DNA of 64,000 bases, from positions 1 to 64,000 of IMG/VR virus record IMGVR_UViG_3300023179_000046; one strand, written 5' to 3'. The number at the start of each line of letters is the position of its first letter. Position 1 is the stretch's first letter. A program made the translations under genes and the position numbers. Below, piece after piece: positions 13,785 to 62,292 of this stretch. Under the pieces are notes generated by a model, which saw only the letters and a list, made by a program, of their open reading frames with translations, made no database searches and was not told the DNA's origin. This stretch comes from a virus.

Positions 13785-14724
13785 CTATTAACCTTAACTT
13801 ATACTCTACTTCCATTGGTTGAGAAAAAACTTTACCAAACAAAGGTACGGTGGAGGATGAAGATATTGCTCTGCTAACTAATTTAAAATCATTTAATACC
13901 GGCGCTCCGTATGAAAACTTTAAATGATCCAGAATTACTGCACCGCTACTGCCAGAAAAGGTCACCGATACGCTAGTAAAATTATCAAAGTCATCGGGCT
14001 TTGGACCCATTAATGCTGATGAGGTATAGAATGCACTGGCAGCCTTGGCAGTTAAATTAACCGTAGAAGATGACCATACATTTTGTGGGGTAGAGTCATC
14101 ACCAAATTTTACTGAAAAGTTAATAGAAGAAGTTGTAGTGCTTGCGTAGTAAAGTATTTCTAGGCTACTTCCCTCATAGAAATTTTGGACGGGGAAATCT
14201 AGACCATTAATGATGGCAGTATTAGTTAAACTAGAAGCAGTCACTGACAGAACTATGTTGTTTGTGCCCGATCTTGTTGCGGGCAAAGTATCTCTCAATG
14301 TTGCTAGATTACCGTTTCCATATTTCCACAAAGTTGATCCAGAAGAAAATTCAGAAAAATCACTAATCTTAGTATTATCATAATAATTATCTAAATTAAC
14401 TTTTGCTGGTATGACACCTATTTCGTAGCAATCAAAATCATCAGCAGGATCAAGAGTCGTTTTTAAAACCATAAAGGATGACGAGCCGCTAGGACTATAT
14501 GTTTTAAGTGTGACGGGGTATCTTAATATTTCATACTGTAATCTTTCAGTAGAAGGAACAGTAGAAGATGAATTAAGACAACCTATCGCCAAAGACCCGG
14601 CCCAATCAAAAGTATTACCAGAAAGAAAAGCATTAATGGTAGAAATGCCATTAGAGGTCAACATATTTTTATATTCACCAATAACGACTCCATTAGAACT
14701 TACAGTATAAATTCCCTCTATCAT
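13777..14724 (-). CDS. Minor tail/baseplate protein
   Basis: KNMLTSNG...LAIG N-terminus typical of tail proteins, and position in the tail cluster. Confidence 0.6.
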   Translation of the reverse strand: MIEGIYTVSSNGVVIGEYKNMLTSNGISTINAFLSGNTFDWAGSLAIGCLNSSSTVPSTERLQYEILRYPVTLKTYSPSGSSSFMVLKTTLDPADDFDCYEIGVIPAKVNLDNYYDNTKISDFSEFSSGSTLWKYGNGNLATLRDTLPATRSGTNNIVLSVTASSLTNTAIINGLDFPVQNFYEGSSLEILYYASTTTSSINFSVKFGDDSTPQNVWSSSTVNLTAKAASAFYTSSALMGPKPDDFDNFTSVSVTFSGSSGAVILDHLKFSYGAPVLNDFKLVSRAISSSSTVPLFGKVFSQPMEVEYKLRLIDG

Positions 14725-47199: not shown

Positions 47200-47269
47200 A
47201 AAAAAGCACCTAAATTCACATAAAATATTTAACAGAGACACCAAGTGTAGCACGCCCCCTGCCTTAAAC

Positions 47270-48297: not shown

Positions 48298-48400
48298 ACT
48301 TTCTCTATAAGTACTTAATAAGAACAAAATATAATATATATAAATTATAGTATATATTACTATATAGTATAGTTAACTAAAGTTAACTATACTATACCAC
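48298..48400. promoter_or_regulatory. AT-rich divergent intergenic region with a perfect 16-bp inverted repeat
   Basis: TATAGTATAGTTAACT-AA-AGTTAACTATACTATA at 48363..48396. TAAGTACTTA at 48308..48317. TGGTATAGT on the minus strand at 48391..48399. Confidence 0.6.
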
Positions 48401-48448
48401 CCCCACCCTGAAAAATGATACACTAGGAATCTCCTTGAAAGGAACACC

Positions 48449-48673
48449 ATGTTAATCATTCCAATAAACAAACACACCCTAAGCCTCGTCACAGTACTAA
48501 ACGACGACGTAGAACCACCAATACCAGTACACGAAAAATTCCCCAACCTTGACGCCACATACCTCCTATGGGACAAAAAAGGCAACAACGTTTACACAAA
48601 AATAATCCACTGGACCGAACACGAACTCTTGAAAGAAGATGTCGGACACCCAATCTTCTTTAGAGAACAATAA
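48449..48673 (+). CDS. Hypothetical protein
   Basis: AAGGA RBS. First of four coupled ORFs. Confidence 0.65.
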   Translation: MLIIPINKHTLSLVTVLNDDVEPPIPVHEKFPNLDATYLLWDKKGNNVYTKIIHWTEHELLKEDVGHPIFFREQ

Positions 48674-48927
48674 TGCCCCAAAGCAACACACCAAAAAACC
48701 AAACCCTAACATACTACTTCGAATACACGCAACTAGTAGCCCAACAAAAAACAAAACCACTACTAGACTGCGCCAACAACCACCAAATGCTACACCCACA
48801 CTACGACACACAAAAAAACAAACTATACTTCCAATGCCTCACCTGCGACCAAAAAGTCCACCCCGGCCAAAACATCACACAAAAAATAAAACAAATAGTA
48901 AACCAACACCAAGAAAACAACCCATGA
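48673..48927 (+). CDS. Small zinc-binding protein
   Basis: CANNH...CLTC, TAATG coupling. Confidence 0.7.
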   Translation: MPQSNTPKNQTLTYYFEYTQLVAQQKTKPLLDCANNHQMLHPHYDTQKNKLYFQCLTCDQKVHPGQNITQKIKQIVNQHQENNP

Positions 48928-49124
48928 ACCAACAACAAACAGACACCCTCCTAGAAATACTCACAGGCATCTACATACAAACACTCCGCATATACGACCA
49001 ACTCGCCATCATCGGAGACAAACTAGGAGCAGACACCACACAACTAGCCAACCTACACGAACAAGGACACACCATCGGCCCCGACCCCGCCCTCACAATA
49101 GACCAAGACCAAGGACAAACATGA
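48924..49124 (+). CDS. Hypothetical protein (MNQQQTDTLLEILTGIYIQ...)
   Basis: ATGA overlap. 3' part of ORF 48639..49124. Confidence 0.65.
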   Translation: MNQQQTDTLLEILTGIYIQTLRIYDQLAIIGDKLGADTTQLANLHEQGHTIGPDPALTIDQDQGQT

Positions 49125-49321
49125 CACACTGGAACCAAAAAATAACAAACCTCCTATGGAAAGCCATAGACGACAACCACGAAACAATAAACAAACTAAG
49201 AATCAAAAAAGAAGAAGCACAACAAACAATCCAAACAATAAACCAAGAAATCGAAAACCTACACAACGACAACCACGAAATACAACAACAAATACTAAAA
49301 ATAGTCTCACCAAAAAACTAA
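49121..49321 (+). CDS. Small coiled-coil protein
   Basis: ATGA overlap, AAGGA RBS. Confidence 0.65.
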   Translation: MTHWNQKITNLLWKAIDDNHETINKLRIKKEEAQQTIQTINQEIENLHNDNHEIQQQILKIVSPKN

Positions 49322-49595
49322 ACCCAAAACGACAAAATGTTAACAAAAAAATTCAAACCCAAAACCACAAAATGTTAACAAATTTTTAAAATGTATGGAT
49401 ACGCCTTCGGCATAGCGGCGCGCGCTAAGGTAGTGCGCCCATACGGGCGGCGTGTCAAGCCTTATGGCGTGTGACATACGCCACATCGTGTTTGGTTGCA
49501 GAATGGTTGCAAACGCCCGTTTCGGGTCGCTGACTGTCGGACCCCTAGTGTAGTGTTCTACTTGTCAGAGAGAAACACTAATGAAAGGTTAGACA

Positions 49596-49778
49596 ATGAT
49601 CCACAAGTACCAAACTCGTCTCACGACCGCCGCTGCGTTGCGCGCCGGTCAAGTCCTTTACCACGGCGGGTCCATCTCGTCGGTGTCGTTCGATGGTCTT
49701 AGCGTCATCGTTCGCGCTTGCGGTAGGGAGTACACGTTCCAAGCGCGCGAGCGCGTTCGGATCTACCCTAACCTCTAG
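49596..49778 (+). CDS. Small protein, paralog of 50991..51188
   Basis: YQTRL...YHGG...RVRIYPNL. GAAAGG RBS. Confidence 0.8.
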   Translation: MIHKYQTRLTTAAALRAGQVLYHGGSISSVSFDGLSVIVRACGREYTFQARERVRIYPNL

Positions 49779-49860
49779 GTTGCAGTAGGGGTGCAACGTC
49801 ACCCCTACTGTCGGACCCCCGTGCTAGGCTCTCACTATCAACAACAACGAAAGGCAAGAA

Positions 49861-50124
49861 ATGACCATCAAGGGCGAACGTCACCTTATCAACTACCGGG
49901 GCAGCGTAATCTTCGCTGGCCGCTCGCCGTGGGATCTCAATCACCCTGAGAAGGCTCTAGTTCGGGTTCACATCAACGGCCAGTGCTACTCGGACGGCGT
50001 ATGGTCAGACACTCGCACCGATGAGGCGATGGACTACATCGACCGCATCCTAGGCACCTATGGCCCCGACCTTATGCCACAGGGCAGGCTTGCCCAGTGG
50101 ATTGTCGAACGCGCCAACGTCTGA
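49861..50124 (+). CDS. Hypothetical protein
   Basis: Own promoter at 49809 and GAAAGG RBS. Confidence 0.8.
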   Translation: MTIKGERHLINYRGSVIFAGRSPWDLNHPEKALVRVHINGQCYSDGVWSDTRTDEAMDYIDRILGTYGPDLMPQGRLAQWIVERANV

Positions 50125-50166
50125 CCCCTGCACTACCCCTGCAATATCAAACACTAACGAAAGGTA

Positions 50167-50406
50167 ATGCCCATGTATTCATCCGGTGTCAACGCTTATG
50201 GACACGCTGTGGAGTTGGAACACTACACGCGCTTTGTCTACTCGGAGGATGGTCTAGATGAGACCGTTGTGCCGTGCGGTTTCGTTGGAATGGTGGATGC
50301 ATCATTCGATGGGTCTAACGGTATTCTTGACTGCCCCGCCTGTGGCGATGAAATCGAAATCGAAGATGGTAAAGCCCATTGGGCCGATGCTTGGATTAGT
50401 GCCTAA
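50167..50406 (+). CDS. Acidic zinc-ribbon-like protein
   Basis: GAAAGG RBS, CPAC motif. Confidence 0.7.
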   Translation: MPMYSSGVNAYGHAVELEHYTRFVYSEDGLDETVVPCGFVGMVDASFDGSNGILDCPACGDEIEIEDGKAHWADAWISA

Positions 50407-50434
50407 TCATTCTCTAGAAAGAAAGAAGAAATAA

Positions 50435-50584
50435 ATGATGATGAAATACATTGACACATTCCCGCTTTGCGAGCATTGCGATATCGAAATGACCGAAGAA
50501 TGCAACTTCGGATATCGCCACTGGCAATGCAACTGCATTGTTTGTAAAGAATGTCTATGTGCATTCATCGCCCCAATGCATTAG
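50435..50584 (+). CDS. Cys-rich microprotein (49 aa)
   Basis: Hand-translated MMMKYIDTFPLCEHCDIEMTEECNFGYRHWQCNCIVCKECLCAFIAPMH, followed by a hairpin at 50584..50608. Confidence 0.55.
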   Translation: MMMKYIDTFPLCEHCDIEMTEECNFGYRHWQCNCIVCKECLCAFIAPMH

Positions 50585-50990
50585 GGGGGATATTCTAATA
50601 TTCCCCCCGCCATTGTTTGATAAAAGAATAGCGAATAAAAAGAATGCATAAAAGAATGCATTCTAAAATAAAAAAGAATGCGATTTGACATTTTTTTAGA
50701 ATGCGGGCAAGTACTTTGCCCGCGAAATTAATACTTGTCAATGCTTTAAGATAACGATTATGTAACGCTTTTGTAAATGCATTTATTTAATTCATGAATA
50801 ACAATTCAATAACAATTCAATAAACATATTCATGAATAATATGCATAACCATGCATAATATACACACATGGCATGTGATGTAGGTCACATCGGCTTAGGT
50901 TGCAGAACGGTTGCAAACAGCCCGTTTAGACAAACTACTGTCAGACCCCCATGCTAGACTGATACCATCAACAACAAGAAAGGCAAGACA

Positions 50991-51188
50991 ATGACTAAGA
51001 CCAACGTTCGTTACCAGACCCGCCTAGTGGCCGCCCGCAATTTGCAGGTCGGCACCGTGTGCTACCACGGGGGCGAGATTGTCTCGCGCGTGCCCAAGAA
51101 CGGCATCGGAATCGTTGTCACGTTCCGTGACGGTTCCGAGCGTTACTTTGCATACTCTGATCGGGTCAGAATCTACCCCAATCTCTGA
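50991..51188 (+). CDS. Small protein, paralog of 49596..49778
   Basis: Shared motifs and the same promoter architecture. Confidence 0.8.
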   Translation: MTKTNVRYQTRLVAARNLQVGTVCYHGGEIVSRVPKNGIGIVVTFRDGSERYFAYSDRVRIYPNL

Positions 51189-51240
51189 CCTGTCAGCCCC
51201 CCATGCTAGGCTCTATCAACAACAACGAAAGGTAATCAAA

Positions 51241-51351
51241 ATGTGGGAAATCATCTGTGAATTCGGATCGTGCAAGAACGTTGCAGAGGTCACCTACCCC
51301 GATGGTCGGGGAGATCAAATCCACTATTGCGGATTCCACGAACCGAATTAG
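51241..51351 (+). CDS. Zinc-finger microprotein (36 aa)
   Basis: GAAAGG RBS. CEFGSC...CGFH. Confidence 0.65.
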   Translation: MWEIICEFGSCKNVAEVTYPDGRGDQIHYCGFHEPN

Positions 51352-51380
51352 GTTCTCCCAACAACAAGAAAGGCAACACC

Positions 51381-51509
51381 ATGAATCAGGACATATGGGA
51401 CCAACTCAATGACCTGCACTGGCAGGATGAGTCGCTCTGGTGCCCCCAATGCTCCGAGTGCTCTCAGCCGTGGCCCTGCCTCACCCGTCAACTCCTAGAC
51501 CGTCTCTAA
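51381..51509 (+). CDS. H..CxxC..WPC microprotein (42 aa)
   Basis: GAAAGG RBS. Paralog-like to 53761..53907. Confidence 0.7.
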   Translation: MNQDIWDQLNDLHWQDESLWCPQCSECSQPWPCLTRQLLDRL

Positions 51510-51524
51510 AGAAAAGGTAATACA

Positions 51525-51710
51525 ATGATCGTTCACAAATCAATTTCGTACAATGAGTACTTCAATTCCGTTGGCCTTGACCAATGCATTCCCTGTAACG
51601 AAATGTACATTGTTCTGGAATGCATTGAATGCGGCGATACAATTGGCTGCTACTATTGTGAGGATGACTATTCTATTCCTCACGATTGTTTCGCATACAT
51701 TTCGGAATAA
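51525..51710 (+). CDS. Cys-rich small protein
   Basis: AAAGG RBS, three CxxC motifs. Confidence 0.65.
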   Translation: MIVHKSISYNEYFNSVGLDQCIPCNEMYIVLECIECGDTIGCYYCEDDYSIPHDCFAYISE

Positions 51711-51917
51711 ATAGAATACCCGCCGAAATTAGCGGGTAATTCTTTTCCAAAAAAGAATGCAATTTGACTAAATTTTAAAAGGCGGGCAAGTTCTTGCCCG
51801 CTTGACCTATCTCTGTCAAGCCTTACGTTGCATACATTACATAGGCTTTTTGGCTTGCCATTGTCGGCCCCACCGTGTAGAGTTTGGCTACCAACCCAAC
51901 GAGCGAGAGGCCCGCCC

Positions 51918-52067
51918 ATGTTTGACGACCGCACCCCCGCGCTGGAAGAAATTGCCGAAATGTGGCTCTACGATTGGGCCGTCCTCTGGGCCGCGAACGA
52001 GTATTTCCCTGAGGATTGGGAGGACCGCGACCCGGCTGAATGGCTGGACGACGCGCCAGAATTCTAA
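51918..52067 (+). CDS. Acidic Trp-rich microprotein (49 aa), paralog of 53178..53354
   Basis: GAGAGG RBS. FPEDWEDRDPAEWLDDAP. Confidence 0.75.
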   Translation: MFDDRTPALEEIAEMWLYDWAVLWAANEYFPEDWEDRDPAEWLDDAPEF

Positions 52068-52280
52068 AACCCTTGCCCCTTCGGGGGCAAGCGGGTAAGT
52101 ACTTGCCCGCGCAGAGCGCGCTGTCAAGTACTTACGATAACGATTAAGTAACGCATTTATATTCACATTTATTGCATATTATTCATGGTTGCAGAATGGT
52201 AGCAAGATCAGTTTGGGTCTTGTGAACTGTCGGACCCCCATGCTACGCTGGCTCTATCAACAACGACGAAAGGTGATCGA

Positions 52281-52505
52281 ATGATTCCCCTCCCGCCCAT
52301 TCCCAACGATGCAATTAACGAGGCTACGGCAGAAGTATTCGCCATCACAAACTCGCTCACCCTAGCCGCACGGGTAGGACACGATGCACTAAACGCTGCC
52401 CTGCCTTACATTGTTATTGCGACGCTGCGCCACTTTGCTGACTGGAACCCCGATGGTGGACTTGACTTGCTGGCCGACGAGATTGAGGGGGAACTAAACA
52501 AATGA
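52281..52505 (+). CDS. Hypothetical protein
   Basis: Promoter at 52228 and GAAAGG RBS. Confidence 0.75.
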   Translation: MIPLPPIPNDAINEATAEVFAITNSLTLAARVGHDALNAALPYIVIATLRHFADWNPDGGLDLLADEIEGELNK

Positions 52506-52654
52506 CCACCCTACGCTCATTCTGCGTTTGCCTTCACGAATCCTACATGCGATTCCAGTATAATGAAGAAACCGGGCTTATTCATTGCCCCAAATGCAAT
52601 TACCCGTCGTGGTACAGCCTGTACCCCGAAGAACTGTCTCAATCAGAATACTAG
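52502..52654 (+). CDS. Zinc-ribbon microprotein (50 aa)
   Basis: ATGA overlap. MTTLRSFCVC...HCPKC. Confidence 0.6.
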   Translation: MTTLRSFCVCLHESYMRFQYNEETGLIHCPKCNYPSWYSLYPEELSQSEY

Positions 52655-52670
52655 ACAACGGAGAAATAAA

Positions 52671-52859
52671 ATGACCTACACCATCATTAGCAACAAGGCA
52701 CAATGCGGAGAATGCGGATTCATTATCGAATCCCGCCACCGCCACGACTTCGCCTCCTGTAAATGTGGTAACATCTTCGTTGACGGAGGAAAAGAATACC
52801 TCCGCAGAGGATTCAAGAACGCAGACACATTCATCGAATTGTCAGAAACAGAGGGATAA
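52671..52859 (+). CDS. Conserved phage zinc-binding protein
   Basis: GGAG RBS. NKAQCGECGFIIESRHRHDFASCKCGNIFVDGG. Confidence 0.8.
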   Translation: MTYTIISNKAQCGECGFIIESRHRHDFASCKCGNIFVDGGKEYLRRGFKNADTFIELSETEG

Positions 52860-52865
52860 TAACTA

Positions 52866-53003
52866 ATGATGCGCTCCCGCCGAAATAGGGCACTATTGAA
52901 AAGCGCAGCCTGCCCGTGGTATTGCTGCTGCGAATTGGAACGCAACCGAACATATCGCACCCGCGAAAAAAACAATTGGCGTAAATGGCGAAAAGAATAC
53001 TAG
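52866..53003 (+). CDS. Basic Cys-containing microprotein (45 aa)
   Basis: Hand-translated MMRSRRNRALLKSAACPWYCCCELERNRTYRTREKNNWRKWRKEY. Ends just before a boundary element. Confidence 0.5.
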   Translation: MMRSRRNRALLKSAACPWYCCCELERNRTYRTREKNNWRKWRKEY

Positions 53004-53177
53004 AGAGCCGCTTGACCCTTCGGGGTCAAGCGGGCAAGTATTTCCCCGCGCGAAATACTTTGTCAACCTCTTACGATGTGGCTTACGTCACACAGAAATA
53101 ACACTGTTTTGAGTTGCATCTGTCAGTCCCGCCCTGTATCGTTCTACCTACCAACCCACCGAGCGAGAGGCACGCCC

Positions 53178-53354
53178 ATGCTGCACCCCACCACCGACCA
53201 GTTCCTGCCCGAAGAATGGGAGGACCGCGACCCCGCCGAGTGGCTGGACGACGCGCCCGATGACGAGCCTCCCATGCCCGAGGACGACGAGGACTGGGGG
53301 GACCATTGGGAGGACGCCGCCGCCGAATATTTCTTATTCGGAGGTGACTACTAA
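53178..53354 (+). CDS. Highly acidic microprotein (58 aa)
   Basis: Leader nearly identical to that of 51918. LPEEWEDRDPAEWLDDAP. Confidence 0.75.
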   Translation: MLHPTTDQFLPEEWEDRDPAEWLDDAPDDEPPMPEDDEDWGDHWEDAAAEYFLFGGDY

Positions 53355-53532
53355 AACCCTTGCCCCTTCGGGGGCAAGCGGGTAAGTACTTGCCCACGGC
53401 AAGTACTTAGTCAACACCTTACGATGTGACATACGACACACTAAAATAACGCTGTTTGGGGTTCCATATGTCAGACCCATCCGGTAAAGTTCTACCTGTC
53501 AGCAAGAAACCCCAACCGAAAGGAAGTGCCCC

Positions 53533-53691
53533 GTGGGAATCTCATCCCCCACCGTCATCGTCTCCACCGAAATCTGGTCCACCAAGCACGGCAAGGTCAC
53601 CAAGGCCGTCGTTCGTACCCCCAACGGCACCTTCCTTGGAGCCACCAACCAGACCGCCGCGATTGCCCCGGTTGTAGTTGGTCGTCGGTAA
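53533..53691 (+). CDS. Microprotein (52 aa), paralog of 59947..60111
   Basis: GTG start after AAGGA. STEIWSTKHGKVTKAVVRTPNGTFLGATNQTAAIAP. Confidence 0.8.
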   Translation: MGISSPTVIVSTEIWSTKHGKVTKAVVRTPNGTFLGATNQTAAIAPVVVGRR

Positions 53692-53760
53692 ATAGATCGA
53701 ACAATGGCCCCCCGCATTGTTCGGGGGGCATTGTTGTTACTAAAAGAATAGGATAAAGAA

Positions 53761-53907
53761 ATGTCATCAGTCTCCGACACGCTTGACGAACTTTTCGAAA
53801 TGCATGGCCCCGACCTTAGCAATTCGTGGATGCCCCCGTACCTCTGCAACGAGTGCGGAAAGTCATGGCCGTGCCCGACGCGCTGGCTGCTGAACCATCT
53901 AGCGTAA
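53761..53907 (+). CDS. H..CxxC..WPC microprotein (48 aa)
   Basis: Hand-translated MSSVSDTLDELFEMHG...LCNECGKSWPCPTRWLLNHLA. Confidence 0.65.
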   Translation: MSSVSDTLDELFEMHGPDLSNSWMPPYLCNECGKSWPCPTRWLLNHLA

Positions 53908-54038
53908 CGATGCTTGACCCTTCGGGGTCAAGCGGGCAAGTACTTGCCCGCCAAAGGCGGGCTGTCAAGTACTTACGATGTGACATACGACACACGATTA
54001 TGCTTCCATTTGTCGGCCCGCTGTGGTAGATTGCTCTC

Positions 54039-54751
54039 ATGACACAGACACTCACCCGCAGCAAAGACCGCAAGGTCGCCAACCTAGTTTCCCCTAATGG
54101 CAAGTCGGCAGTAATTGCTAATTCATTCGGTATTCCCGCCGGTAAGCAATTCTCTTGCCCCTCTGCCACCGATTTCTGTTCCACCATTTGCTACGCTGGC
54201 AAACTGGAGAAGATTTACACTAACGTCAAGTCTGCGCTAATTCGCAATTGGGAAGCGTTGCAGGATAAGTCCACCGAAGAATTGTATGACATTCTTTCGG
54301 GAATGATCGCAGAATTCAATTCGGAATGTGACAAGCGCGGAGCCGATAAACTATTCCGTATCCATTGGGACGGTGATTTCTTCGCCCCGCATTACACCGC
54401 CGCATGGTCTAAGGTAATTGCAAACAACCCACAGATTCAATTCTGGGTCTATACTCGCGTTGCCACCGCTGCCCTATTCTTGCACGCGCGCAAGTATTCC
54501 AACCTTGGATTGTATTTCTCTGCCGACCCTGACAATATTGAGGCTGCCCGCCTATTAGAGTCTAAAGGCATCAATATTGCCTATGTCGATAAGTCATTCG
54601 CTCAGGGTAAAGAACAATTCCCCAACGCTACCCGCTGCCCGAGAACAATAAGGCACTCCCGCTAATCACCGATAAGGGATCAGCCTGTGCCCGTTGCGGA
54701 TTGTGTATCAATGGCCGCAAGTCCGTGCTATTCTCCACTAGTAAGAAGTGA
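54039..54751 (+). CDS. Mycobacteriophage gp88-like Fe-S/radical-SAM-related protein, with apparent frameshift near 54640
   Basis: SCPSATDFCSTICYA, FRIHWDGDFF, FWVYTR. A second frame continues ENNKALPLITDKGSACARCGLC to TGA at 54751. Leaderless start 6 nt after the -10. Confidence 0.8.
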
Positions 54752-54855
54752 GCATCCTAGACGTAATTGTGTTTCTATTCGTCTATCTCCCCGCAATGAT
54801 TGGCATGTTCATAGTAATACCATTTCTAATTGCATTCATCTTGCATAAAGAATAG
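54748..54855 (+). CDS. Single-pass membrane microprotein (35 aa)
   Basis: GTGA overlap with the corrected gp88 stop. Hydrophobic. Confidence 0.5.
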   Translation: MSILDVIVFLFVYLPAMIGMFIVIPFLIAFILHKE

Positions 54856-54894
54856 CGGTCATCTTGCATAAAGAATAGCGGTCATCTTGCATAA
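54836..54894. repeat. Tandem 23-bp repeat (about 2.5 copies)
   Basis: TCATCTTGCATAAAGAATAGCGG twice, plus TCATCTTGCATAA. Confidence 0.85.
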
Positions 54895-55120
54895 TAGTTA
54901 ACGGTGGGGCGGCTAATGTCGCCCCACCTAAGTACTTGACAGCCCGCCTGTCGGCGGGCAAGTACTTGCCCGCAGGGCAAGCACTTGTCAATACCTTACG
55001 ATGTGATCTTTGACACGTTTTTTAGGTTGCAGAATGGTTGCAGGTGGTAGGGCACTGTCAGTCGGCTGTGCTAATCTTCTCTCAGTCGAAAGGTTCGGCT
55101 ACACAAGAACAGGAGTCACC

Positions 55121-55378
55121 ATGTGGCAGTTTGACGCAGCGTGCGACACGCAAGACACCGAAATCTTCTTCTCTGAACTCCGCAGCAAGGTTGTCAAGGC
55201 TAAGGCAATCTGCGCCACATGCCCCGTTCGTAGCCAATGCCTCTCATTCGCTATTGCCGAAGATATCGACACCGGAATCTTCGGAGGCCTCACCCCCGCC
55301 GAGCGTAAAGAATTGTTGCGCCCTAAGAACAACGAAGGCCCCCGCGCCCAATGGGAAATCGACCTACTTGACTCGTAA
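55121..55378 (+). CDS. whiB: WhiB-family transcription factor
   Basis: WQFDAAC...FF...AKAICATCPVRSQCL...GIFGGLTPAER. AGGAG RBS. Confidence 0.92.
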   Translation: MWQFDAACDTQDTEIFFSELRSKVVKAKAICATCPVRSQCLSFAIAEDIDTGIFGGLTPAERKELLRPKNNEGPRAQWEIDLLDS

Positions 55379-55413
55379 TCCTGCAACATCAAACAACTAA
55401 TAAGGAGAAACAA

Positions 55414-55749
55414 ATGGGAATTATTCAGCACGACGCCGTTCTCGTCACATTCAGCGACTACGCAGAATCGCGGGGCACATTCGAACTTGAGAAATTGCGC
55501 GCTCTCCTGCCCGTAGAGGTCGCAAGCCTGCTCTCTGTCACCGATGCCGTATCCAACGGATACCGTACCCTATTCTTTGCCCCCGATGGGTCTAAGGAGG
55601 GATGGGAAACTTCTAACGATGGCGACGACGCCCGTGACATTATTCGCCAATACTGCGAAGAAACGTTGCCCTATTGCGAAGTTATTGTAGTTTCCTATGG
55701 AGAACTGGGAAACAGAATTTGGGATTACCCCGACGGATATGTAAACTAA
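55414..55749 (+). CDS. Hypothetical phage protein
   Basis: [20 protein letters not shown] motif. Confidence 0.8.
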
Positions 55750-55934
55750 ACAATGGCACGATAATGCCGAAATTGGGCGAACGCGCGCCGGTGGTTGTGT
55801 TGTATCTGCGCGGTCTGCTGGGTGTGCCGACTTTGCCGTGATGCGGCCTTTCGGACCCCCGGATCTTTGGAACGCCAATAGCCTGCAAACCCCCTGGTCT
55901 TTGGAACGTAAGTTGGTAGAGTTCAACCACGGCG

Positions 55935-56228
55935 ATCCTTCGCGGTCCGGCCGCGTGGTCGCCAACATGGAAGCCTCGCTCGGCGTTCCCACCGCAACGA
56001 GCGTGCGCGGCGTGCCAGCGAAGTTGCTCATTGACAACCGAATCGTCATCAACAACCACCTCGCGCGCGCACGGCCGACAGTTGAGGCCAAGGAGGCGGC
56101 GTGGGCAGCAGCAGTCGAGAGTGACGAGTTGTCCAACGCGATCCTCGGCGCCACCGTGGGGGGCTTCAACCAGCCCGATCAGCGTGACCTGCTTCGTCCG
56201 TTCGTGGACAAGTACGTCGCCGCCCTGT
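55935..56228 (+). pseudogene. Fused fragments resembling actinobacterial kgd/sucA (55935..~56072) and pepN (~56063..56228)
   Basis: [39 protein letters not shown] is Kgd-like. [12 protein letters not shown]...[12 protein letters not shown]...LLRPFVDKY is like the PepN C-terminal region. High GC. Identification is by recall, not search. Confidence 0.65.
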
Positions 56229-56266
56229 CACGGCGGAGGTCACGGGTTCGAATCCCGTTAGAGTCG
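56220..56266 (+). pseudogene. 3' part of tRNA-Asp(GTC)
   Basis: CCGCC-CTGTCAC-GGCGG anticodon arm, ACGGG-TTCGAAT-CCCGT T-arm, TAGAGTC-G. No 5' acceptor strand or D-arm upstream. Confidence 0.75.
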
Positions 56267-56368
56267 CTTGACACCCGCCCTTCGGGCGGGTAAGTACTTG
56301 CCCGCCAACGGCGGGCTGTCAAGTACTTTACGTTGTGACATTCACCACACATTTTTTGCCGTTTATCC

Positions 56369-56397
56369 TTGACTCTAGGATAGCCGTACTGTAAAGT
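56369..56397 (+). promoter_or_regulatory. Canonical sigma-70-type promoter (leaderless)
   Basis: TTGACT-N17-TAAAGT with ATG at 56405. A similar TTGACC-N17-TAAGGT lies at 59494..59522. Confidence 0.65.
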
Positions 56398-56404
56398 ACA
56401 TACC

Positions 56405-56560
56405 ATGAAGAACAAGCGCAGAGAGCAGAAGCAGAAAGAATACGTCGAACACGTCCAGAATCTCCGCAGAGGTTCTACCACTGACCGTCACAAGTCCGTC
56501 AAGGATTACCGCCGTAAGAATAAGTCAAACACTCTAGGATGGGAGAAAGAATATGCGTGA
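56405..56560 (+). CDS. Highly basic microprotein (51 aa)
   Basis: MKNKRREQKQKEYVEHVQNLRRGSTTDRHKSVKDYRRKNKSNTLGWEKEYA. Overlaps the next ATG. Confidence 0.7.
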   Translation: MKNKRREQKQKEYVEHVQNLRRGSTTDRHKSVKDYRRKNKSNTLGWEKEYA

Positions 56561-56951
56561 CATTATTGTGTTCCACCCCGGCACAGGTACTATCCTGCCC
56601 CTGAACGATGAGGTTTACCTTATCGACTATGCCTCCCTTAGCGAAGAAGAACAGGGAATGGTTGACTACGGCAACATCGACCTTGACGAAATCGAAACCT
56701 ACCGTTTGTCCAACCACCTTGTCGGCTATCAGTACTTTGGCGACGAGATTGACGACTCCGATGACTACCTTGTTGGCATCCCGACTACCTCCATCCCGCT
56801 TGACGTTGTGGTTGACCCTAACGAGGACTTTGGCGAGTTGCTTGACGACGACGAAGATGAGGACTTTGGCGATTCGGAAGCGTGGACGGAAGAAGAAATA
56901 GAAGATCTCAAGAAAGTATTAGCAGAATGGACGCCCCCGGCACCCGAATGA
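56553..56951 (+). CDS. Very acidic hypothetical protein
   Basis: 132 aa, D/E-rich, GGAG RBS. Confidence 0.75.
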   Translation: MRDIIVFHPGTGTILPLNDEVYLIDYASLSEEEQGMVDYGNIDLDEIETYRLSNHLVGYQYFGDEIDDSDDYLVGIPTTSIPLDVVVDPNEDFGELLDDDEDEDFGDSEAWTEEEIEDLKKVLAEWTPPAPE

Positions 56952-57067
56952 GCGCATACGCTGTACTTGCAATCATAGTTTTAACTTTCGCTCCCGCCCT
57001 CACATACTACCTAGGCTATAAGCAGGGTAGATCAGACCTAAACTATGAATGGGGTAAAGATGCCTAA
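56948..57067 (+). CDS. Membrane microprotein
   Basis: ATGA overlap. MSAYAVLAIIVLTFAPALTYYLGY. Confidence 0.6.
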   Translation: MSAYAVLAIIVLTFAPALTYYLGYKQGRSDLNYEWGKDA

Positions 57068-57221
57068 TCTAGAATACATTGGCTCGCTAGCCCACTACCA
57101 CGGGCCATGCGAAATCGTAGACGAAGCCTACACACGACAGGGCCGCTACTCCATTGTTCTCCCCAACGGCAAAATGCTAATCAACGTCCGCCCCCAATCC
57201 ATTCTCATAATCCAAGACTAA
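57060..57221 (+). CDS. Microprotein (53 aa)
   Basis: Hand-translated MPNLEYIGSLAHYHGPCEIV...NVRPQSILIIQD. Stops just before a boundary element. Confidence 0.6.
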   Translation: MPNLEYIGSLAHYHGPCEIVDEAYTRQGRYSIVLPNGKMLINVRPQSILIIQD

Positions 57222-57384
57222 ACTGCTTGACCCTTCGGGGTCAAGCGGGTAAGTACTTGCCCGCAAGGCAAGCACTTGTCAACCCCTTACGATGTGACAT
57301 TACGCACACCAAAAAAGGTTACAATTCTGGCCTCCTTGCCGTAAAGTTTGTCCTGTCAGAAAGCCCCCCACATAAGGAGTCACA

Positions 57385-57903
57385 GTGCCCAACTGGTGCA
57401 GCAACAGTATCCGAGTCAGCCCCAAGGGCTACAACTTGGCTATCTCTTACTCATTCATGCTCGCGCTAATGTCATACTACCCATTCTTCACACTCTCCGC
57501 TGTCAAGGGCAAGGCACCCAACGACACCGACTCCTATGACTGGAATGTCAAGAACTATGGCACCAAGTGGGACATTGACCCGGTGGCATGGAAGATTGAG
57601 ATTGACGATGTAGACTATTGGTACACCCTATGGGTTACCTTTGACACCGCATGGTCCCCGGCCACACCCGTCGTAGAACAACTGTCCATCGAATATCCCC
57701 AATTGGTATTCACCCACGCCTACTGCGAAATGGGAATGGACTACCTAGGCGTAGACCAATGGCAAGCGGGGGAAAAGACTGTAATTGAGGACAGCGCACC
57801 ATCTGAATATGATTGGGACGACGAAGATCCCTACTCTATGCCCGAAACCCCCTCAGACCTTGCTGAGTTTCTAGAGGCAAACCGCATCCACCTAGGAGGA
57901 TAA
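57385..57903 (+). CDS. DUF1281/YubB-like ferredoxin-fold protein
   Basis: MPNWCSN...WNVKNYGTKWD...FDTAWSP...YCEMG. Confidence 0.8.
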   Translation: MPNWCSNSIRVSPKGYNLAISYSFMLALMSYYPFFTLSAVKGKAPNDTDSYDWNVKNYGTKWDIDPVAWKIEIDDVDYWYTLWVTFDTAWSPATPVVEQLSIEYPQLVFTHAYCEMGMDYLGVDQWQAGEKTVIEDSAPSEYDWDDEDPYSMPETPSDLAEFLEANRIHLGG

Positions 57904-57906
57904 CCA

Positions 57907-58119
57907 ATGGTATTCCAAGAAGCCTACGGAGAACTAACTAAAGAACAATGGAGACTCTACAAGAAACACTCCATTACTCCCGCCGAACACTACATGCTAG
58001 AATCATACGCAAACTATGACGCCCAACAAATAATTCAAATAATCAAAAACTCCATAAACAAAGCAGGCAAACTCTCCCCCTCATTCCTTATGAGCGCAAT
58101 TGCAGAAATAAACAACTAA
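57907..58119 (+). CDS. Hypothetical protein
   Basis: AGGAGG RBS. Confidence 0.75.
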   Translation: MVFQEAYGELTKEQWRLYKKHSITPAEHYMLESYANYDAQQIIQIIKNSINKAGKLSPSFLMSAIAEINN

Positions 58120-58309
58120 CAAGCCCTTGCCCCTTCGGGGGCAAGCGGGTAAGTACTTGCCCGCGCGGAGCGCGGCTGTCAAGTACTTTACGTTGTGACT
58201 TACGACACACTAAAATAACTACAAATATCCTAGAAAAACCCTTCCGTTTGTCAGACTGATGATGTAGTCTATGACTACAAAGTTAGCCACTACCCACTAG
58301 GAGATTCAC

Positions 58310-59320
58310 ATGCATGGTCTAGAAACCAATGGCACAGAGGTCGCTTTCGCCCTCCGTGGTGCCCCCGCGTGGCACAACCTCGCAAACAAGACTTTCGGTG
58401 CCGATGAGACGGTCACTACCTCGCAGATGCTTGACGCTGCCATGCTTTCCAACTGGAACATCCAACTGCACGCCGTTTCGGAGTACGCGCCCGAGTCATT
58501 CCGTTTCTCGTCCGACTCGTACATGGTCACCCGTACCAACCCGTTCGACGGTGGCACTGACGTTCTCGCCACCGTTGGCGAGCGTTACACTGTCGTTCAG
58601 AACGAGAGCCTGTTTGAGTTTGCCGATCACATTCTGGACGGCGGCGCATCGTGGGAGTCGGCTGGCTCCATCAAGGGCGGTCGTCGTGTGTTCGGTTCGC
58701 TCGTCATCCCGCGCGAGATTGTTCTGGACCCCAACGGTGCCAACGACAAGACTGTCACCTACCTGCTCGTCAACACGTCGCACGACGGATCAACCGCTGT
58801 GCAGGCTTCCATCACCCCCGTTCGCGTGGTCTGCCAGAACACGCTCAACCTTGCGCTCCACAAGGTCAAGCAGACCTACAAGATCCGTCACACTCAGACC
58901 GTGGGCGGTAAGGTTGCTGCGGCTCAGTCTGCGCTTGGCCTGACCTACACCTACATGGACGCTTTCAGTGCAGAGGTTACTGCCCTGTTTGAGCAGTCCA
59001 TCACCGATCAGACTTTCGACTCCATCGTCAAGGCTATCTACCCTCAGCCTGAGAAGGACGCTAAGGGTGCCCTGACCAAGTGGACGAACAAGGTCGATCT
59101 CGTTCAGGACTTGTACCGTACCTCCCCCACTAACGCCAACATCAAGGGCACCGCGTGGGGCGCGCTCAACGCTCTCACTGAGCGCCTTGACTGGTTCCGC
59201 AACGGTCGCGGCGATGACTCTAAGGAGAACGTGGCCGCTGCCGCTACTGGCTTCGACCCCGTGACCAACACGGAGAAGAACCGCATCCTGTCCGTTGTCA
59301 AGGAACTTTCTTTCGCCTAG
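58310..59320 (+). CDS. DUF932 (TIGR03299-like) phage/plasmid protein
   Basis: PAWHNL, YTVVQN, ESAGSIKGGR, NTSHDGS, TPVRVVCQNTL, IRHT, GTAWGALNA. Confidence 0.88.
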   Translation: MHGLETNGTEVAFALRGAPAWHNLANKTFGADETVTTSQMLDAAMLSNWNIQLHAVSEYAPESFRFSSDSYMVTRTNPFDGGTDVLATVGERYTVVQNESLFEFADHILDGGASWESAGSIKGGRRVFGSLVIPREIVLDPNGANDKTVTYLLVNTSHDGSTAVQASITPVRVVCQNTLNLALHKVKQTYKIRHTQTVGGKVAAAQSALGLTYTYMDAFSAEVTALFEQSITDQTFDSIVKAIYPQPEKDAKGALTKWTNKVDLVQDLYRTSPTNANIKGTAWGALNALTERLDWFRNGRGDDSKENVAAAATGFDPVTNTEKNRILSVVKELSFA

Positions 59321-59337
59321 AGCGAACATGCAGCAGC

Positions 59338-59360
59338 ACCCCCCGGCTCACGCCGGGGGG
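59338..59360 (+). terminator. Terminator hairpin
   Basis: CCCCCCGGC-TCAC-GCCGGGGGG after the DUF932 stop. Confidence 0.7.
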
Positions 59361-59555
59361 AGTTGTTGTCAAATTGTTACCTAAAAGTACTTGACAAAAT
59401 TTTTTTGCGGGCAAGTACTTGACCGCGCGAAGCGCGGCTGTCAAGTACTTTACGGTGTGTATTACGACACACATTTTTTAGCACAAAAATGTATTGACCT
59501 TGGGGTCGGGGGATGCTAAGGTTTACCTACAACGACAGAGAGGGAGGTACAGGAT

Positions 59556-59753
59556 ATGGTTGTTACTATTCAGGCACCGTCATCTGCCGCACAGAAGCGT
59601 GCTTTTAGTCAGTGTATGATTATGGGTTTGGAAGCGACTGTTTTGGAGGACAATTGTATTGATTTGGTTGTTCAGCAGTTGTGGAAGGCTAAGCATGTTG
59701 CTGGTATGGTTGATGGTGAGATTGTTGCGGTTCATGACCGGGTTAAGATTTAG
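59556..59753 (+). CDS. Hypothetical protein
   Basis: GGAGG RBS, promoter at 59494. Confidence 0.7.
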   Translation: MVVTIQAPSSAAQKRAFSQCMIMGLEATVLEDNCIDLVVQQLWKAKHVAGMVDGEIVAVHDRVKI

Positions 59754-59761
59754 GAGTTTGT

Positions 59762-59938
59762 ATGGCTGACAGTAATGATGCGCGTGCGATTCAGATTTTT
59801 ACTCAGGCTTGGAATAGTGGTTATGATGACGCTATTGCTGAGGTTATTGATTATTTATCTTCATTGTATGATATGACTAATAGTTTTGCGGAAAAGCAGT
59901 TGATTGATTCTATTATTGCCAATTTTGAGTCTAACTAA
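59762..59938 (+). CDS. Microprotein (58 aa)
   Basis: AGGAG RBS. MADSNDARAIQIFTQAWNSGYDDAI... Confidence 0.65.
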   Translation: MADSNDARAIQIFTQAWNSGYDDAIAEVIDYLSSLYDMTNSFAEKQLIDSIIANFESN

Positions 59939-59946
59939 GGAGTATT

Positions 59947-60111
59947 ATGTCTAACATTGTTTCTACCCCCGCCGTTGTTGTTTCTACTGAGGTTTGGTCT
60001 ACCAAGCACGGTAAGGTGACGAAGGCTGTTGTTCGCACCCCGTCCGGTACGTTCCTTGGTGCTACTAATCAGACTGCGGCGATTGCGCCGATGATTGTAG
60101 GTCGCCGCTAG
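59947..60111 (+). CDS. Microprotein (54 aa), paralog of 53533..53691
   Basis: AAGGAG RBS. STEVWSTKHGKVTKAVVRTPSGTFLGATNQTAAIAP. Confidence 0.8.
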   Translation: MSNIVSTPAVVVSTEVWSTKHGKVTKAVVRTPSGTFLGATNQTAAIAPMIVGRR

Positions 60112-60156
60112 ATTTAAGTCATTAGGGGGAGGCTGAGCCTCCCCCTTTTGGCGTGC

Positions 60157-60238
60157 GCGGGTGTGGCGGAATTGGCACACGCAGCAAACTTAAAATTTGC
60201 CACCGAAAGGTATACGGGTTCAACTCCCGTCACCCGCA
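60157..60238 (+). tRNA. tRNA-Leu (anticodon TAA)
   Basis: GCGGGTG/CACCCGC acceptor, GCAAA-CTTAAAA-TTTGC anticodon arm, long variable arm ACC-GAAA-GGT, ACGGG-TTCAACT-CCCGT T-arm, A discriminator, no encoded CCA. Confidence 0.9.
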
Positions 60239-60262
60239 CGCTAGTTTAGTTTAAGGAGAGAT

Positions 60263-60478
60263 ATGCCTAAATGTTTTGATTGTAATAATGTTACAATGTT
60301 TGAATTTTCTACTACACAATGGGATACAGTTTACTTTGACCCCGAGGGATTTATCGTTGACACCAAGAGGCTCTATAAGGTAGACTCATTCCTACCGCCC
60401 ACCTGTGGGCGGTGTGAAAGTACGAATATTGATGCCACATTCCTTGATGCTGCACTATTGGAGGTAGAAGATGAATGA
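60263..60478 (+). CDS. Zinc-ribbon protein
   Basis: CFDC...CGRC, AAGGAG RBS. Confidence 0.75.
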   Translation: MPKCFDCNNVTMFEFSTTQWDTVYFDPEGFIVDTKRLYKVDSFLPPTCGRCESTNIDATFLDAALLEVEDE

Positions 60479-60815
60479 TAGGGACTTCCTAAGGAGTTTA
60501 GGTTTTGTTGTTGGTGAGCGTGGTCGTTTCTCTAAGGAGATGGTGGCTGCCCTAGCATCTCGCAATTCTAAGACTGAGACATCTACCAAGTTTGACAAGA
60601 TTGATGAGGCGGGACTTCCTGAGAAACTAAAGCGAACACCTGTCAGGGAAGCCGAACAACTATATGGCTATGACAAGTATGGTCACAAGATTGCTTTCGT
60701 ACTTTGTAATTCATGTAATCAGCATATGATTTGGTGTACCTGCAAGGCAGGTATTCTCGCCCCGTCCCATATTATTCGTAGCGAAAACCCCCTAGTCACT
60801 GTCCGTGCGGCATGA
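60471..60815 (+). CDS. Protein with Lsr2-like DNA-binding domain and Cys cluster
   Basis: RDFLRSLGFVVGERGRFSKEMVAA resembles the Lsr2 RGR domain. CNSC..CTC. Confidence 0.6.
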   Translation: MNDRDFLRSLGFVVGERGRFSKEMVAALASRNSKTETSTKFDKIDEAGLPEKLKRTPVREAEQLYGYDKYGHKIAFVLCNSCNQHMIWCTCKAGILAPSHIIRSENPLVTVRAA

Positions 60816-60848
60816 TACTATTAGACACCATCGACACTAGGAGGCAGT

Positions 60849-61181
60849 ATGGCTAGGACCACGGAAGATAAGGTAGCCAAGTATCTGATTGACGGATGCG
60901 CGGATTCTCGTCTCAACGAGGTTGCGTTGGCTCACACTATGGGGAGGCAGGCGTATGACGTACAGGCGCGGTTCTGGAACACTCTGGTTTCTTACATTTA
61001 CTTTCATGCTCACAATTATGAGCATGGTCTATTTGACGAAGGTACATATGAGATTGCTAGATTGTCTAAGAAGATCAAGGACTTAGCGTTTGCTGATGAG
61101 CGTAAGTATTCCTCTGATCCCGTTCATGAACGGTATGGAGATTTTGAGTTGCAAGATGGTCAATTGCGTCAAGGGTTTTAA
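60849..61181 (+). CDS. Hypothetical protein
   Basis: AGGAGG RBS, promoter motif at 60800. Confidence 0.8.
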   Translation: MARTTEDKVAKYLIDGCADSRLNEVALAHTMGRQAYDVQARFWNTLVSYIYFHAHNYEHGLFDEGTYEIARLSKKIKDLAFADERKYSSDPVHERYGDFELQDGQLRQGF

Positions 61182-61182
61182 T

Positions 61183-61308
61183 ATGAGTTTAATTTTAGAT
61201 TATATTTCTGTGCCTTGTGATGCTTGCGGGGCGGAAGTTGGAGAAATTTGTCGTCCCCATTGTATAGGTATAGTAAAATACTATGAGGTAGATACGCTAT
61301 CAGACTAA
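61183..61308 (+). CDS. Zinc-finger microprotein (41 aa)
   Basis: VPCDACGAEVGEICRPHC. Confidence 0.6.
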   Translation: MSLILDYISVPCDACGAEVGEICRPHCIGIVKYYEVDTLSD

Positions 61309-61341
61309 TCAGTCAAGTGTTATAAAGAATTACATCTACCT

Positions 61342-61371
61342 AGGGCGGGAGTTTTTAACTCCCGCCCTTTT
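61342..61371 (+). terminator. Intrinsic terminator
   Basis: AGGGCGGGAGTT-TTT-AACTCCCGCCCT followed by a T run. Confidence 0.75.
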
Positions 61372-62292
61372 AGTTTGCCTAAGTACTTGACACGGCCCGC
61401 TGGCGCGGGCAAGTACTTGACCTCACATATTTTTTTTGTCTAGACCTTTACGATGGGTTGTTTTTAGCACATTTTTGGCATGTTTTTATAGTTATGCAAG
61501 TAAGCATACTCTCATGTTTTTCTATTTTTATAGACATTACGATGATTTGATTTTGGCACTGTTATGAGGGTACAAAAAAAACTCATGTTATGGGATTCCA
61601 TAGCATGAGTTTGCATGCGTTTACGTATGCAAGCACGCCAAAGGCGTGTATATACTTTGTTTTAGCAAGAGAATATAGTTTGTATTAAGGTTTAATGGTT
61701 AACTCTTAATATGGGGCGGGTATATCTAGGGTTATCCCCCTTGTATATCTATAGGGATATACATATCATGCATCCCGCCCAATATATGCATAAACTACGG
61801 ATTTCGTTGTCTACCCCTAGAGCAAAACCATAATATCCGTTGTCTAACCCCCTTAAAACTACGGATTCCGTTGTTTAGGCTGCCTAGAACAACAATTTAT
61901 ACCCTAAAATGCTTACCAAAATAGGGTTAAAACGAGGCAGAATTGCTTAAAAAGCAACAAAAACCACCCAAAACCACCCAAAAATGCTCAAAAAACAACA
62001 AAAATGGCTAAACAATAAAATTTACTGTCTAAAGGGCATATCACAGGAAAATTTACGGAAAATAGGGTCAAATTCAGGAAAAAAAAGGGTTTACGGGGGA
62101 TATGTAACTAAGTTAATTACATAAATTTCTCTTTAACATTCGTATGTGTGTGTTTTTTTGGTTTGATGTGGCGTTTTATGCATGTGTTTGCATATTTATG
62201 CGTTTGTTTGCATACGTTTGTAGTCATTATTCATTTGTATTCGTTTGTTTGCATTGGTTTGGCACGCCTTTGGCGTGCATTGTATTCGTTTA

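Follow-up and report, generated by a model that had tools for sequence, protein, structure and literature searches.

A promoter element resembling the -26 site of the host DNA-damage activator PafBC recurs through a small-gene array of lake actinophages

An array of small genes in the IMG/VR virus record IMGVR_UViG_3300023179_000046 (102,989 bases, estimated to be 82% complete), the first 64 kb of which (64,000 nucleotides (nt)) are hereafter the window, contains twelve copies of a composite motif, TGTC(A/G/C)G-N10-TAnnnT, on the plus strand between positions 49535 and 60821. Judged by their layout, the twelve sites are promoters for the housekeeping (SigA) RNA polymerase of the host, each placed at the head of one small cassette, and they carry the hexamer of PafBC-dependent promoters in identical register, mostly with the -35 element missing. 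The explanation towards which we lean is that the TGTCRG element at -26 would be read by the host's own PafBC, and that the array would thereby be gated by single-stranded DNA (ssDNA).

The PafBC consensus determined in vivo is tGTCgg(N10)tA(N3)T, the 3' part of which is the SigA -10 element, while the 5' part, at -23 to -28, constitutes a '-26 element' with no accompanying -35 consensus; residues R46 and R50 of PafB contact both guanines of the strictly conserved GTC, and PafC touches domain 4 of SigA (Müller et al. 2021, PMC8635444). Assembly of the PafBC complex requires both RNA polymerase-SigA that already sits on a promoter of this kind and PafBC that is loaded with ssDNA (Schilling et al. 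2025, PMC11804915). These two studies agree with the background on which an earlier note on this DNA had relied, namely the consensus and activation by single-stranded nucleic acid. An older RecA-NDp consensus, tTGTCRgtg-8nt-TAnnnT, is quoted in PMC5656591, and one cited paper ties pafBC to phage resistance.

All twelve sites that the earlier note had proposed are present on the plus strand, with the -26 hexamer TGTC(A/G/C)G, invariant GTC included, in 12/12. Spacing is strict: a scan of spacers from N4 to N17 returned 12 matches at N10 and 0-1 at each other length, and at every site the last T of the -10 element lies 6-43 nt from the start codon of the next plus-strand open reading frame (ORF), with a GAAAGG-type ribosome-binding site in most leaders. 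Enrichment of the motif over shuffled sequence was evident both in the region 48301-62000 (plus strand; 12 matches, where 2000 shuffles averaged 0.15 and never exceeded 2) and in the window as a whole, where TGTCNG-N10-TANNNT matched 14 times on the two strands, with 1.88 expected and 0/100 dinucleotide shuffles reaching 14; the two matches beyond the twelve are on the minus strand, at 14228 and 15831. A good -35 hexamer is lacking at 11/12 motif sites, the sole case being TTGCCA at 51862. A simple sigma-70 scan of the array (29 sites, 17 expected) was uninformative. The twelve copies belong to intergenic modules that are themselves repeated and fall into at least two classes by sequence, and are therefore not independent samples; independence is supplied by the related phages.

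Individually, the motif reads TGTCGG-N10-TAGTGT at 49535-49556 (start codon ATG at 49596), TGTCGG-N10-TAGAGT at 51862-51883 (ATG 51918; the TTGCCA lies 17 nt from the -10), TGTCAG-N10-TATCGT at 53121-53142 (ATG 53178), TGTCAG-N10-TAAAGT at 53469-53490 (GTG 53533) and TGTCAG-N10-TAGTCT at 58249-58270, upstream of a DUF932 gene (58310-59320). A TGC extended -10 accompanies TGTCGG-N10-TAGGCT at 49809-49830 (ATG 49861), TGTCAG-N10-TAGACT at 50939-50960 (ATG 50991; the identical 22-mer occurs in the relatives L020 and G010), TGTCAG-N10-TAGGCT at 51191-51212 (ATG 51241), TGTCGG-N10-TACGCT at 52228-52249 (ATG 52281) and TGTCAG-N10-TAATCT at 55056-55077, which precedes a WhiB gene (55121-55378). TGTCCG-N10-TACTAT at 60800-60821, with a TGA extended -10, is located within the 3' end of the ORF 60471-60815 and precedes an ATG at 60849. 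At TGTCGG-N10-TAGATT (54011-54032) the layout is leaderless, as had been noted, with 6 nt between the -10 and the ATG of a mycobacteriophage GP88-family gene at 54039. The two promoters of canonical type that the earlier note had named, neither with a TGTCRG, are real: TTGACT-N17-TAAAGT at 56369-56397, leaderless with its ATG (56405) 7 nt past the -10, and TTGACC-N17-TAAGGT at 59494-59522, with a TGC extended -10 and an ATG at 59556. A third, absent from that note, is TTACAA-N17-TAAAGT at 57319-57347 (GTG 57385), with no TGTCRG in the -26 slot; all three are on the plus strand.

The same promoter is found on the array strand of relatives recognised by their portal proteins (L012-L014 and L020, 74-79% identity), before unrelated small ORFs. 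A scan of IMG/VR for TGTCAGACC-N4-TGCTANNNT returned at least 120 contigs, among which single word matches could be due to chance; at least 106 related lake-phage loci (106/120 among the matches listed) carry at least two same-strand matches to the general motif, with 27 in 13 kb at one of them. Four CheckV-complete genomes of 100-116 kb have 9-17 copies of the motif on a single strand, nearly all within one block of ~10 kb, while a reversed-pattern control gave 0-3. To keep a further test on the array strands from being circular, its sole anchor was TGnTAnnnT with a ribosome-binding site and start codon behind it: among 718 sites so anchored, TGTC starts exactly 16 nt before the -10 in 60% and at essentially no other offset, and the two positions that follow, neither imposed by the search, are A in 88% or G in 10% (position 5) and G in 96% (position 6). 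Match scores of the 661 unique anchored sites are bimodal, with 371 at 6/6, 21 at 5/6 and the rest background-like, and the rare mismatches are confined almost wholly to positions 5-6, sparing TGTC. The commonest continuations after the hexamer are ACC (biased by the search seed), TGG, TCC and TGC, with TGG after TGTCGG; the family variants TGTCAGTG, TGTCAGTGG/C and TGTCGGTGG fit the older RecA-NDp consensus, and many copies read TGTCRGTG.

Orthologous genes retain the element. TGTC-N12-TAnnnT is kept within 160 nt upstream of 36/38 DUF932 orthologues, the proteins of which are 53-64% identical, and of 26/39 GP88 orthologues, many of the latter also preserving the leaderless layout of 54011, while spacer, flanks and leader vary among the orthologues that keep the motif. 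The rest of the cargo is hypervariable, and GP88 and DUF932, each present in about one third of loci, are the sole recurrent genes among the 37 array ORFs. The offset lock, the bimodal scores and the footprint before orthologues with varying flanks and cargo identify TGTCRG as a selected, position-locked promoter element and not a relic of duplication. That it might be nothing but chance, or a functionless passenger of module duplication, has in its favour the shared descent of the window copies within repeated modules; it has become highly improbable given 12 copies where shuffles yield 0.15, the strict N10, and conservation in hundreds of diverged promoters with differing flanks and cargo, and mere coincidence or hitch-hiking is all but excluded. 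An exact 34-nt leader word had no match in the metagenome contigs searched.

Putative host machinery of the right kind occurs in candidate host lineages (acI). Five acI/Nanopelagicales genomes were examined as plausible hosts of the phage family; they were chosen because the IMG numbers of many relatives fall within the range of the Lake Mendota series. Two adjacent WYL proteins of ~310-340 residues, in pafB-pafC layout, are encoded in 5/5. The first protein of one such pair aligns end to end with Mycobacterium smegmatis PafB (PDB 7P5X/9FND; E = 5e-24) and retains the recognition helix RMFERDK, including R46 and R50. The recA genes of these acI genomes have upstream an SOS box and, after it, TGTCAG-N10-TACCGT (G001) or TGTCGT-N10-TAACGT (G002), or CGTC-N12-TACCTT (G004 and G005), and in two Planktophila genomes TGTCGGTG-N8-TATTTT with an SOS box precedes a gene for a PHP/DNA polymerase III alpha protein (dnaE2-like). 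Genome-wide counts of the motif in the five acI genomes equal those of the reversed pattern, and the motif was consequently rejected as a general feature of host promoters; the phage packs into 12 kb as many copies as chance gives one whole host genome. Separately, an NlpC/P60 gene in two of these genomes (G005, L311; G004, L315) has TGTCAGTG-N8-TAnnnT ~250 nt before it, and is perhaps a conserved member of the host PafBC regulon with no role in repair.

The phage itself offers no evident reader of the element. No WYL domain (PF13280) was detected in this 103-kb record (G000, 82% complete) or in the relatives G006-G010, four of which are 100% complete, and the record has no match to Sigma70_r2. 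No RNA polymerase gene was found in the record, the large ORFs of which encode DNA polymerase III alpha, RecA, primase and structural proteins. The sole sigma-like signal is a helix-turn-helix ORF of 48 residues on the minus strand (G000 93606-93752; L319 11606-11752), with a sub-threshold match to sigma-70 region 4 at 15.4 bits. For the sequence available, 82% of the genome by estimate, a PafBC, sigma factor or RNA polymerase of the phage's own was thus rejected. The earlier note had offered two ways of wiring the array, to the host damage sensor or to a PafBC-like activator encoded by the phage; the former stands as the best available reading on grounds of sequence likeness, the latter is unsupported. 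With none of these genes found, this uncultured, lytic-type actinophage must therefore rely on host RNA polymerase.

Under the favoured explanation, the host PafBC heterodimer would read TGTCRG by 'sigma adaptation', with the helix-turn-helix of PafB on the GTC triplet and PafC on domain 4 of SigA, in a complex that would form only with ssDNA-bound PafBC. The array would be turned on, or boosted, once ssDNA arises in the infected cell, whether through ultraviolet (UV) damage in surface water, through the action of host nucleases on the linear genome as it enters, or through the phage's own recombination-dependent replication, driven by RecA, exonuclease and resolvase; were replication the source, expression of the array would be coupled to it and so would not be immediate-early. 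More tentatively, a large family of lake actinophages with genomes of ~100 kb may have taken up the ssDNA-gated PafBC promoter as the standard for its hypervariable cassette array, such that the host's alarm for DNA damage or foreign DNA would trigger genes for takeover or counter-defence.

Several observations weigh against reading by host PafBC. The -10 of the family promoters is near the consensus TAtAAT and is preceded by the TGn of an extended -10 in 69%, while the few host PafBC-type promoters examined have no TGn; TTGACA-like hexamers (at least 4/6) stand at 17 nt in 17% and at 18 nt in 14%, over a background of 2-6%, and some DUF932 promoters read TTGACA-N-TGTCAG. With an extended and near-consensus -10, and in some cases a -35, family promoters may therefore fire without PafBC, and basal PafBC-independent expression is probable in addition to any activation. 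The phage element is also stricter than that of the host, with T1 and G6 nearly invariant and an A-tract on its 5' side, and the window elements continue with ACC or CCC, not with the TG of the older consensus. No SOS box (TCGAAC-N4-GTTCGA, up to two mismatches) was found in the window, and a link to LexA was dropped. PafBC needs ssDNA, of which there is no obvious supply when infection has only just begun. Faust, among the closest cultured relatives, has 2 motif matches in 131 kb, amounting to absence, which rules out the motif as a trait of all Stanwilliamsviridae-like phages. Finally, the sole host-like piece of DNA in the array, within 55838-56293 (63% G+C), reaches no more than 80-85% identity to high-GC genomes such as those of Streptomyces and Intrasporangiaceae. 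The functional equivalence of the two promoter types, which the earlier note had drawn from the canonical promoters of the array, survives in part: the three canonical window promoters without TGTCRG speak for it, while the -35-like hexamer in about one quarter of TGTCRG promoters of the family, together with the extended -10, softens it, in that PafBC may not be a strict requirement.

Part of this evidence would suit a factor encoded by the phage or delivered with the virion, which would read TGTCAG at -26 and bridge to SigA domain 4 in the manner of MotA/AsiA, the likeness to PafBC sites then being convergence or positional mimicry. The strictness of the element relative to the host consensus, its A-tract, and its confinement to one phage lineage to the exclusion of Faust would all follow readily; an immediate-early activator could come from the three cassettes that have canonical promoters, many ORFs of the array belong to no known family, and WhiB, of a family that binds SigA domain 4, is encoded in all four complete relatives. 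We know of no WhiB protein that reads a specific hexamer. Such a factor is nonetheless unlikely: no array gene is common to all motif loci, GP88 and DUF932 reaching about one third each; no WYL gene was found in this record or the four complete relatives, and no sigma or RNA polymerase gene in this record; and a likeness to the host motif that spans eight positions with exact spacing is hardly to be expected by chance.

The promoters might instead be self-sufficient, by virtue of their extended -10, consensus -10 and occasional -35, with TGTCAG in the spacer serving as the operator of a negative or timing regulator, either a shut-off protein of the phage or a host factor such as ClgR. An operator between -35 and -10 is a common repressor layout, the frequencies of TGn (69%) and of -35-like hexamers (17% at 17 nt, 14% at 18 nt) fit it, and several DUF932 promoters have precisely the arrangement TTGACA-N-TGTCAG. 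This possibility is nevertheless doubtful, as ~70% of family promoters have no -35-like hexamer, TGTCRG and a canonical -35 are mutually exclusive in the window save for TTGCCA at 51862, and no repressor candidate was found. An asymmetric 6-bp site whose distance from the -10 does not shift by a base among hundreds of diverged promoters suits a factor bound to RNA polymerase better than a free repressor. ClgR, once reported as binding the recA P1 region, is mentioned in PMC5656591.

The array occupies 48449-61308, comprising ~37 small ORFs in single- or few-gene units, and the interval 48.4-61.3 kb is the sole plus-strand block of a record in which nearly all long ORFs lie on the minus strand; its G+C content is 45-53%, against ~40% elsewhere. 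Products include the WhiB, GP88-family and DUF932 proteins and a DUF1281_C protein, the remainder being ~30 tiny ORFs, many with CxxC pairs and many without a known family. Elsewhere the phage encodes DNA polymerase III alpha, RecA, a Toprim primase, endonuclease VII, RuvC-like and Cas4-like nucleases, RIIA/RIIB, a Dps-like ferritin, sugar-modifying enzymes and structural proteins. Its portal is 52-55% identical to those of the Streptomyces phages Faust and Wakanda and their relatives; Faust belongs to the Stanwilliamsviridae, and the present phage is a distant relative of it. Both share a synteny running from leftward small genes (the left genome end in Faust) through a glycosyltransferase and a ribonucleotide reductase to the portal, and by analogy the array is probably at one physical end of the genome; it is probably a host-takeover or counter-defence block. 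The ribonucleotide reductase (951 residues; 44398-47253) has a weak intein-splicing match in mid-protein, and an ORF at 80341-83250 of the record has a LAGLIDADG domain inside.

Other features surround the promoters. Five TGTCRG promoters have, 20-40 nt upstream, a tandem word, GGTTGCAGAATGGTTGCA, made of two TTGCA with a spacing of ~11 nt (49491-49511, 49775-49795, 50895-50915, 52184-52204 and 55022-55042); it is possibly the site of a second regulator. A conserved box, TTACGATGTGACATACGACACAC, occurs in eight copies (53071-53093, 53419, 53973, 54996, 56328, 57287, 58188 and 59450), some of which fit the CRP-type TGTGA-N6-TCACA, and on its 5' side are a perfect palindrome, GCGGGCAAGTACTTGCCCGC, and GC-rich hairpins such as GCTTGACCCTTCGGGGTCAAGC. 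The palindrome word GGGYAAGTACTTGCCCRC was found in only two other viral contigs, one copy each, and the distribution of this dyad element is much narrower than that of the promoter.

Within the cassettes, the GP88-family gene (54039-54751) is frameshifted near 54640, where frame 0 reaches a stop at 54665 and another frame continues to ...PENNKALPLITDKGSACARCGLCINGRKSVLFSTSKK, through either a sequencing error or a real break, and directly past the gene are three tandem 23-nt units (CATCTTGCATAAAGAATAGCGGT) at 54828-54905. Two ORFs of 52-54 residues in different cassettes (53533-53691 and 59947-60111) are paralogous, their DNA being 75% identical over 148 nt; a second paralogous pair is formed by 51918-52067 and 53178-53354. 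A tRNA-Leu(TAA) gene lies between cassettes at 60157-60239. The stretch 55838-56293 holds a chimeric ORF of 151 residues with the mosaic look of captured host DNA, residues 37-79 of which (43 residues) are 81-93% identical to a conserved actinobacterial protein, tentatively an E2 acyltransferase from its wording; a sequence like a tRNA 3' arm, GGTTCGAATCC, closes the stretch at ~56240-56260. A search for the host with this piece gave matches of 80-93% scattered over many actinobacterial orders, so that it confirms an actinobacterial background and names no host. Beyond the array, ~900 nt of non-coding DNA (61400-62290) separate it from convergent minus-strand genes and contain hairpins and TTTGCAT/GTTTG repeats in 10-nt phase; this stretch might serve as a replication origin or represent an end of the genome.

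The DNA-damage response of actinobacteria has PafBC as its master activator, and PafBC is the sole described case of 'sigma adaptation'; a full-text literature search returned no paper on PafBC-type phage promoters, on viral use of PafBC or on this phage family. Should reading by host PafBC hold, these would be the first viruses to borrow a sigma-adaptation activator, gaining a built-in timer coupled to damage or replication, and phages of the most abundant freshwater bacteria would time 10-27 accessory genes by the host's ssDNA alarm, which would tie phage gene expression to UV stress and to anti-phage attack by nucleases. PafBC specificity could then be dissected with hundreds of natural promoter variants, and a large pool of tiny uncharacterised genes would stand out as probable factors of host takeover or anti-defence. 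Should the promoters not depend on PafBC, their strict -26 element points to a further factor acting at the same place on RNA polymerase.

Parallels exist in several known systems. The host-takeover module of SPO1 and the pre-early region of T5 are terminal clusters of small genes, in which each unit has its own strong promoter and terminator and the promoters are plain consensus host promoters; the array likewise consists of clustered small genes oriented apart from the rest, its terminal position being suggested by synteny with Faust only, but its promoter bears the -26 element of a stress activator. In the PeSL cassettes of T4-type phages, an early promoter and a stem-loop flank mobile small genes, much as repeated promoter-hairpin modules bracket hypervariable small ORFs here, and by this analogy the module repeats suggest shuffling of cassettes through recombination between modules; phage group, host and promoter type are all unlike. 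T4 middle promoters, with a MotA box at -30 and AsiA ('sigma appropriation'), share an element just downstream of the -35 slot that replaces the -35, dependence on the host primary sigma factor with a normal -10, and use by a class of lytic-phage genes, but the MotA box, (a/t)(a/t)(a/t)TGCTTtA, differs from TGTCAG in sequence and position, and its reader is phage-encoded, while none was found here, where no search was aimed at the MotA/AsiA families. Closest are the PafBC-dependent (RecA-NDp, recA P1-type) promoters of Mycobacterium, Streptomyces and other actinobacteria, with TGTCRG at -28 to -23, an invariant GTC, exactly N10, a SigA-type TAnnnT and usually no -35, and with family variants that go on with TG as in tTGTCRgtg. 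The phage copies differ in heading tiny accessory genes, not repair genes, in arrays of 10-27; in most of them the -10 is near consensus and extended by TGn, T1 and G6 are nearly invariant, and there is no SOS box. The comparison suggests a known class of host promoter that a phage family has put to use, in sharpened form, as the standard of its cassette array.

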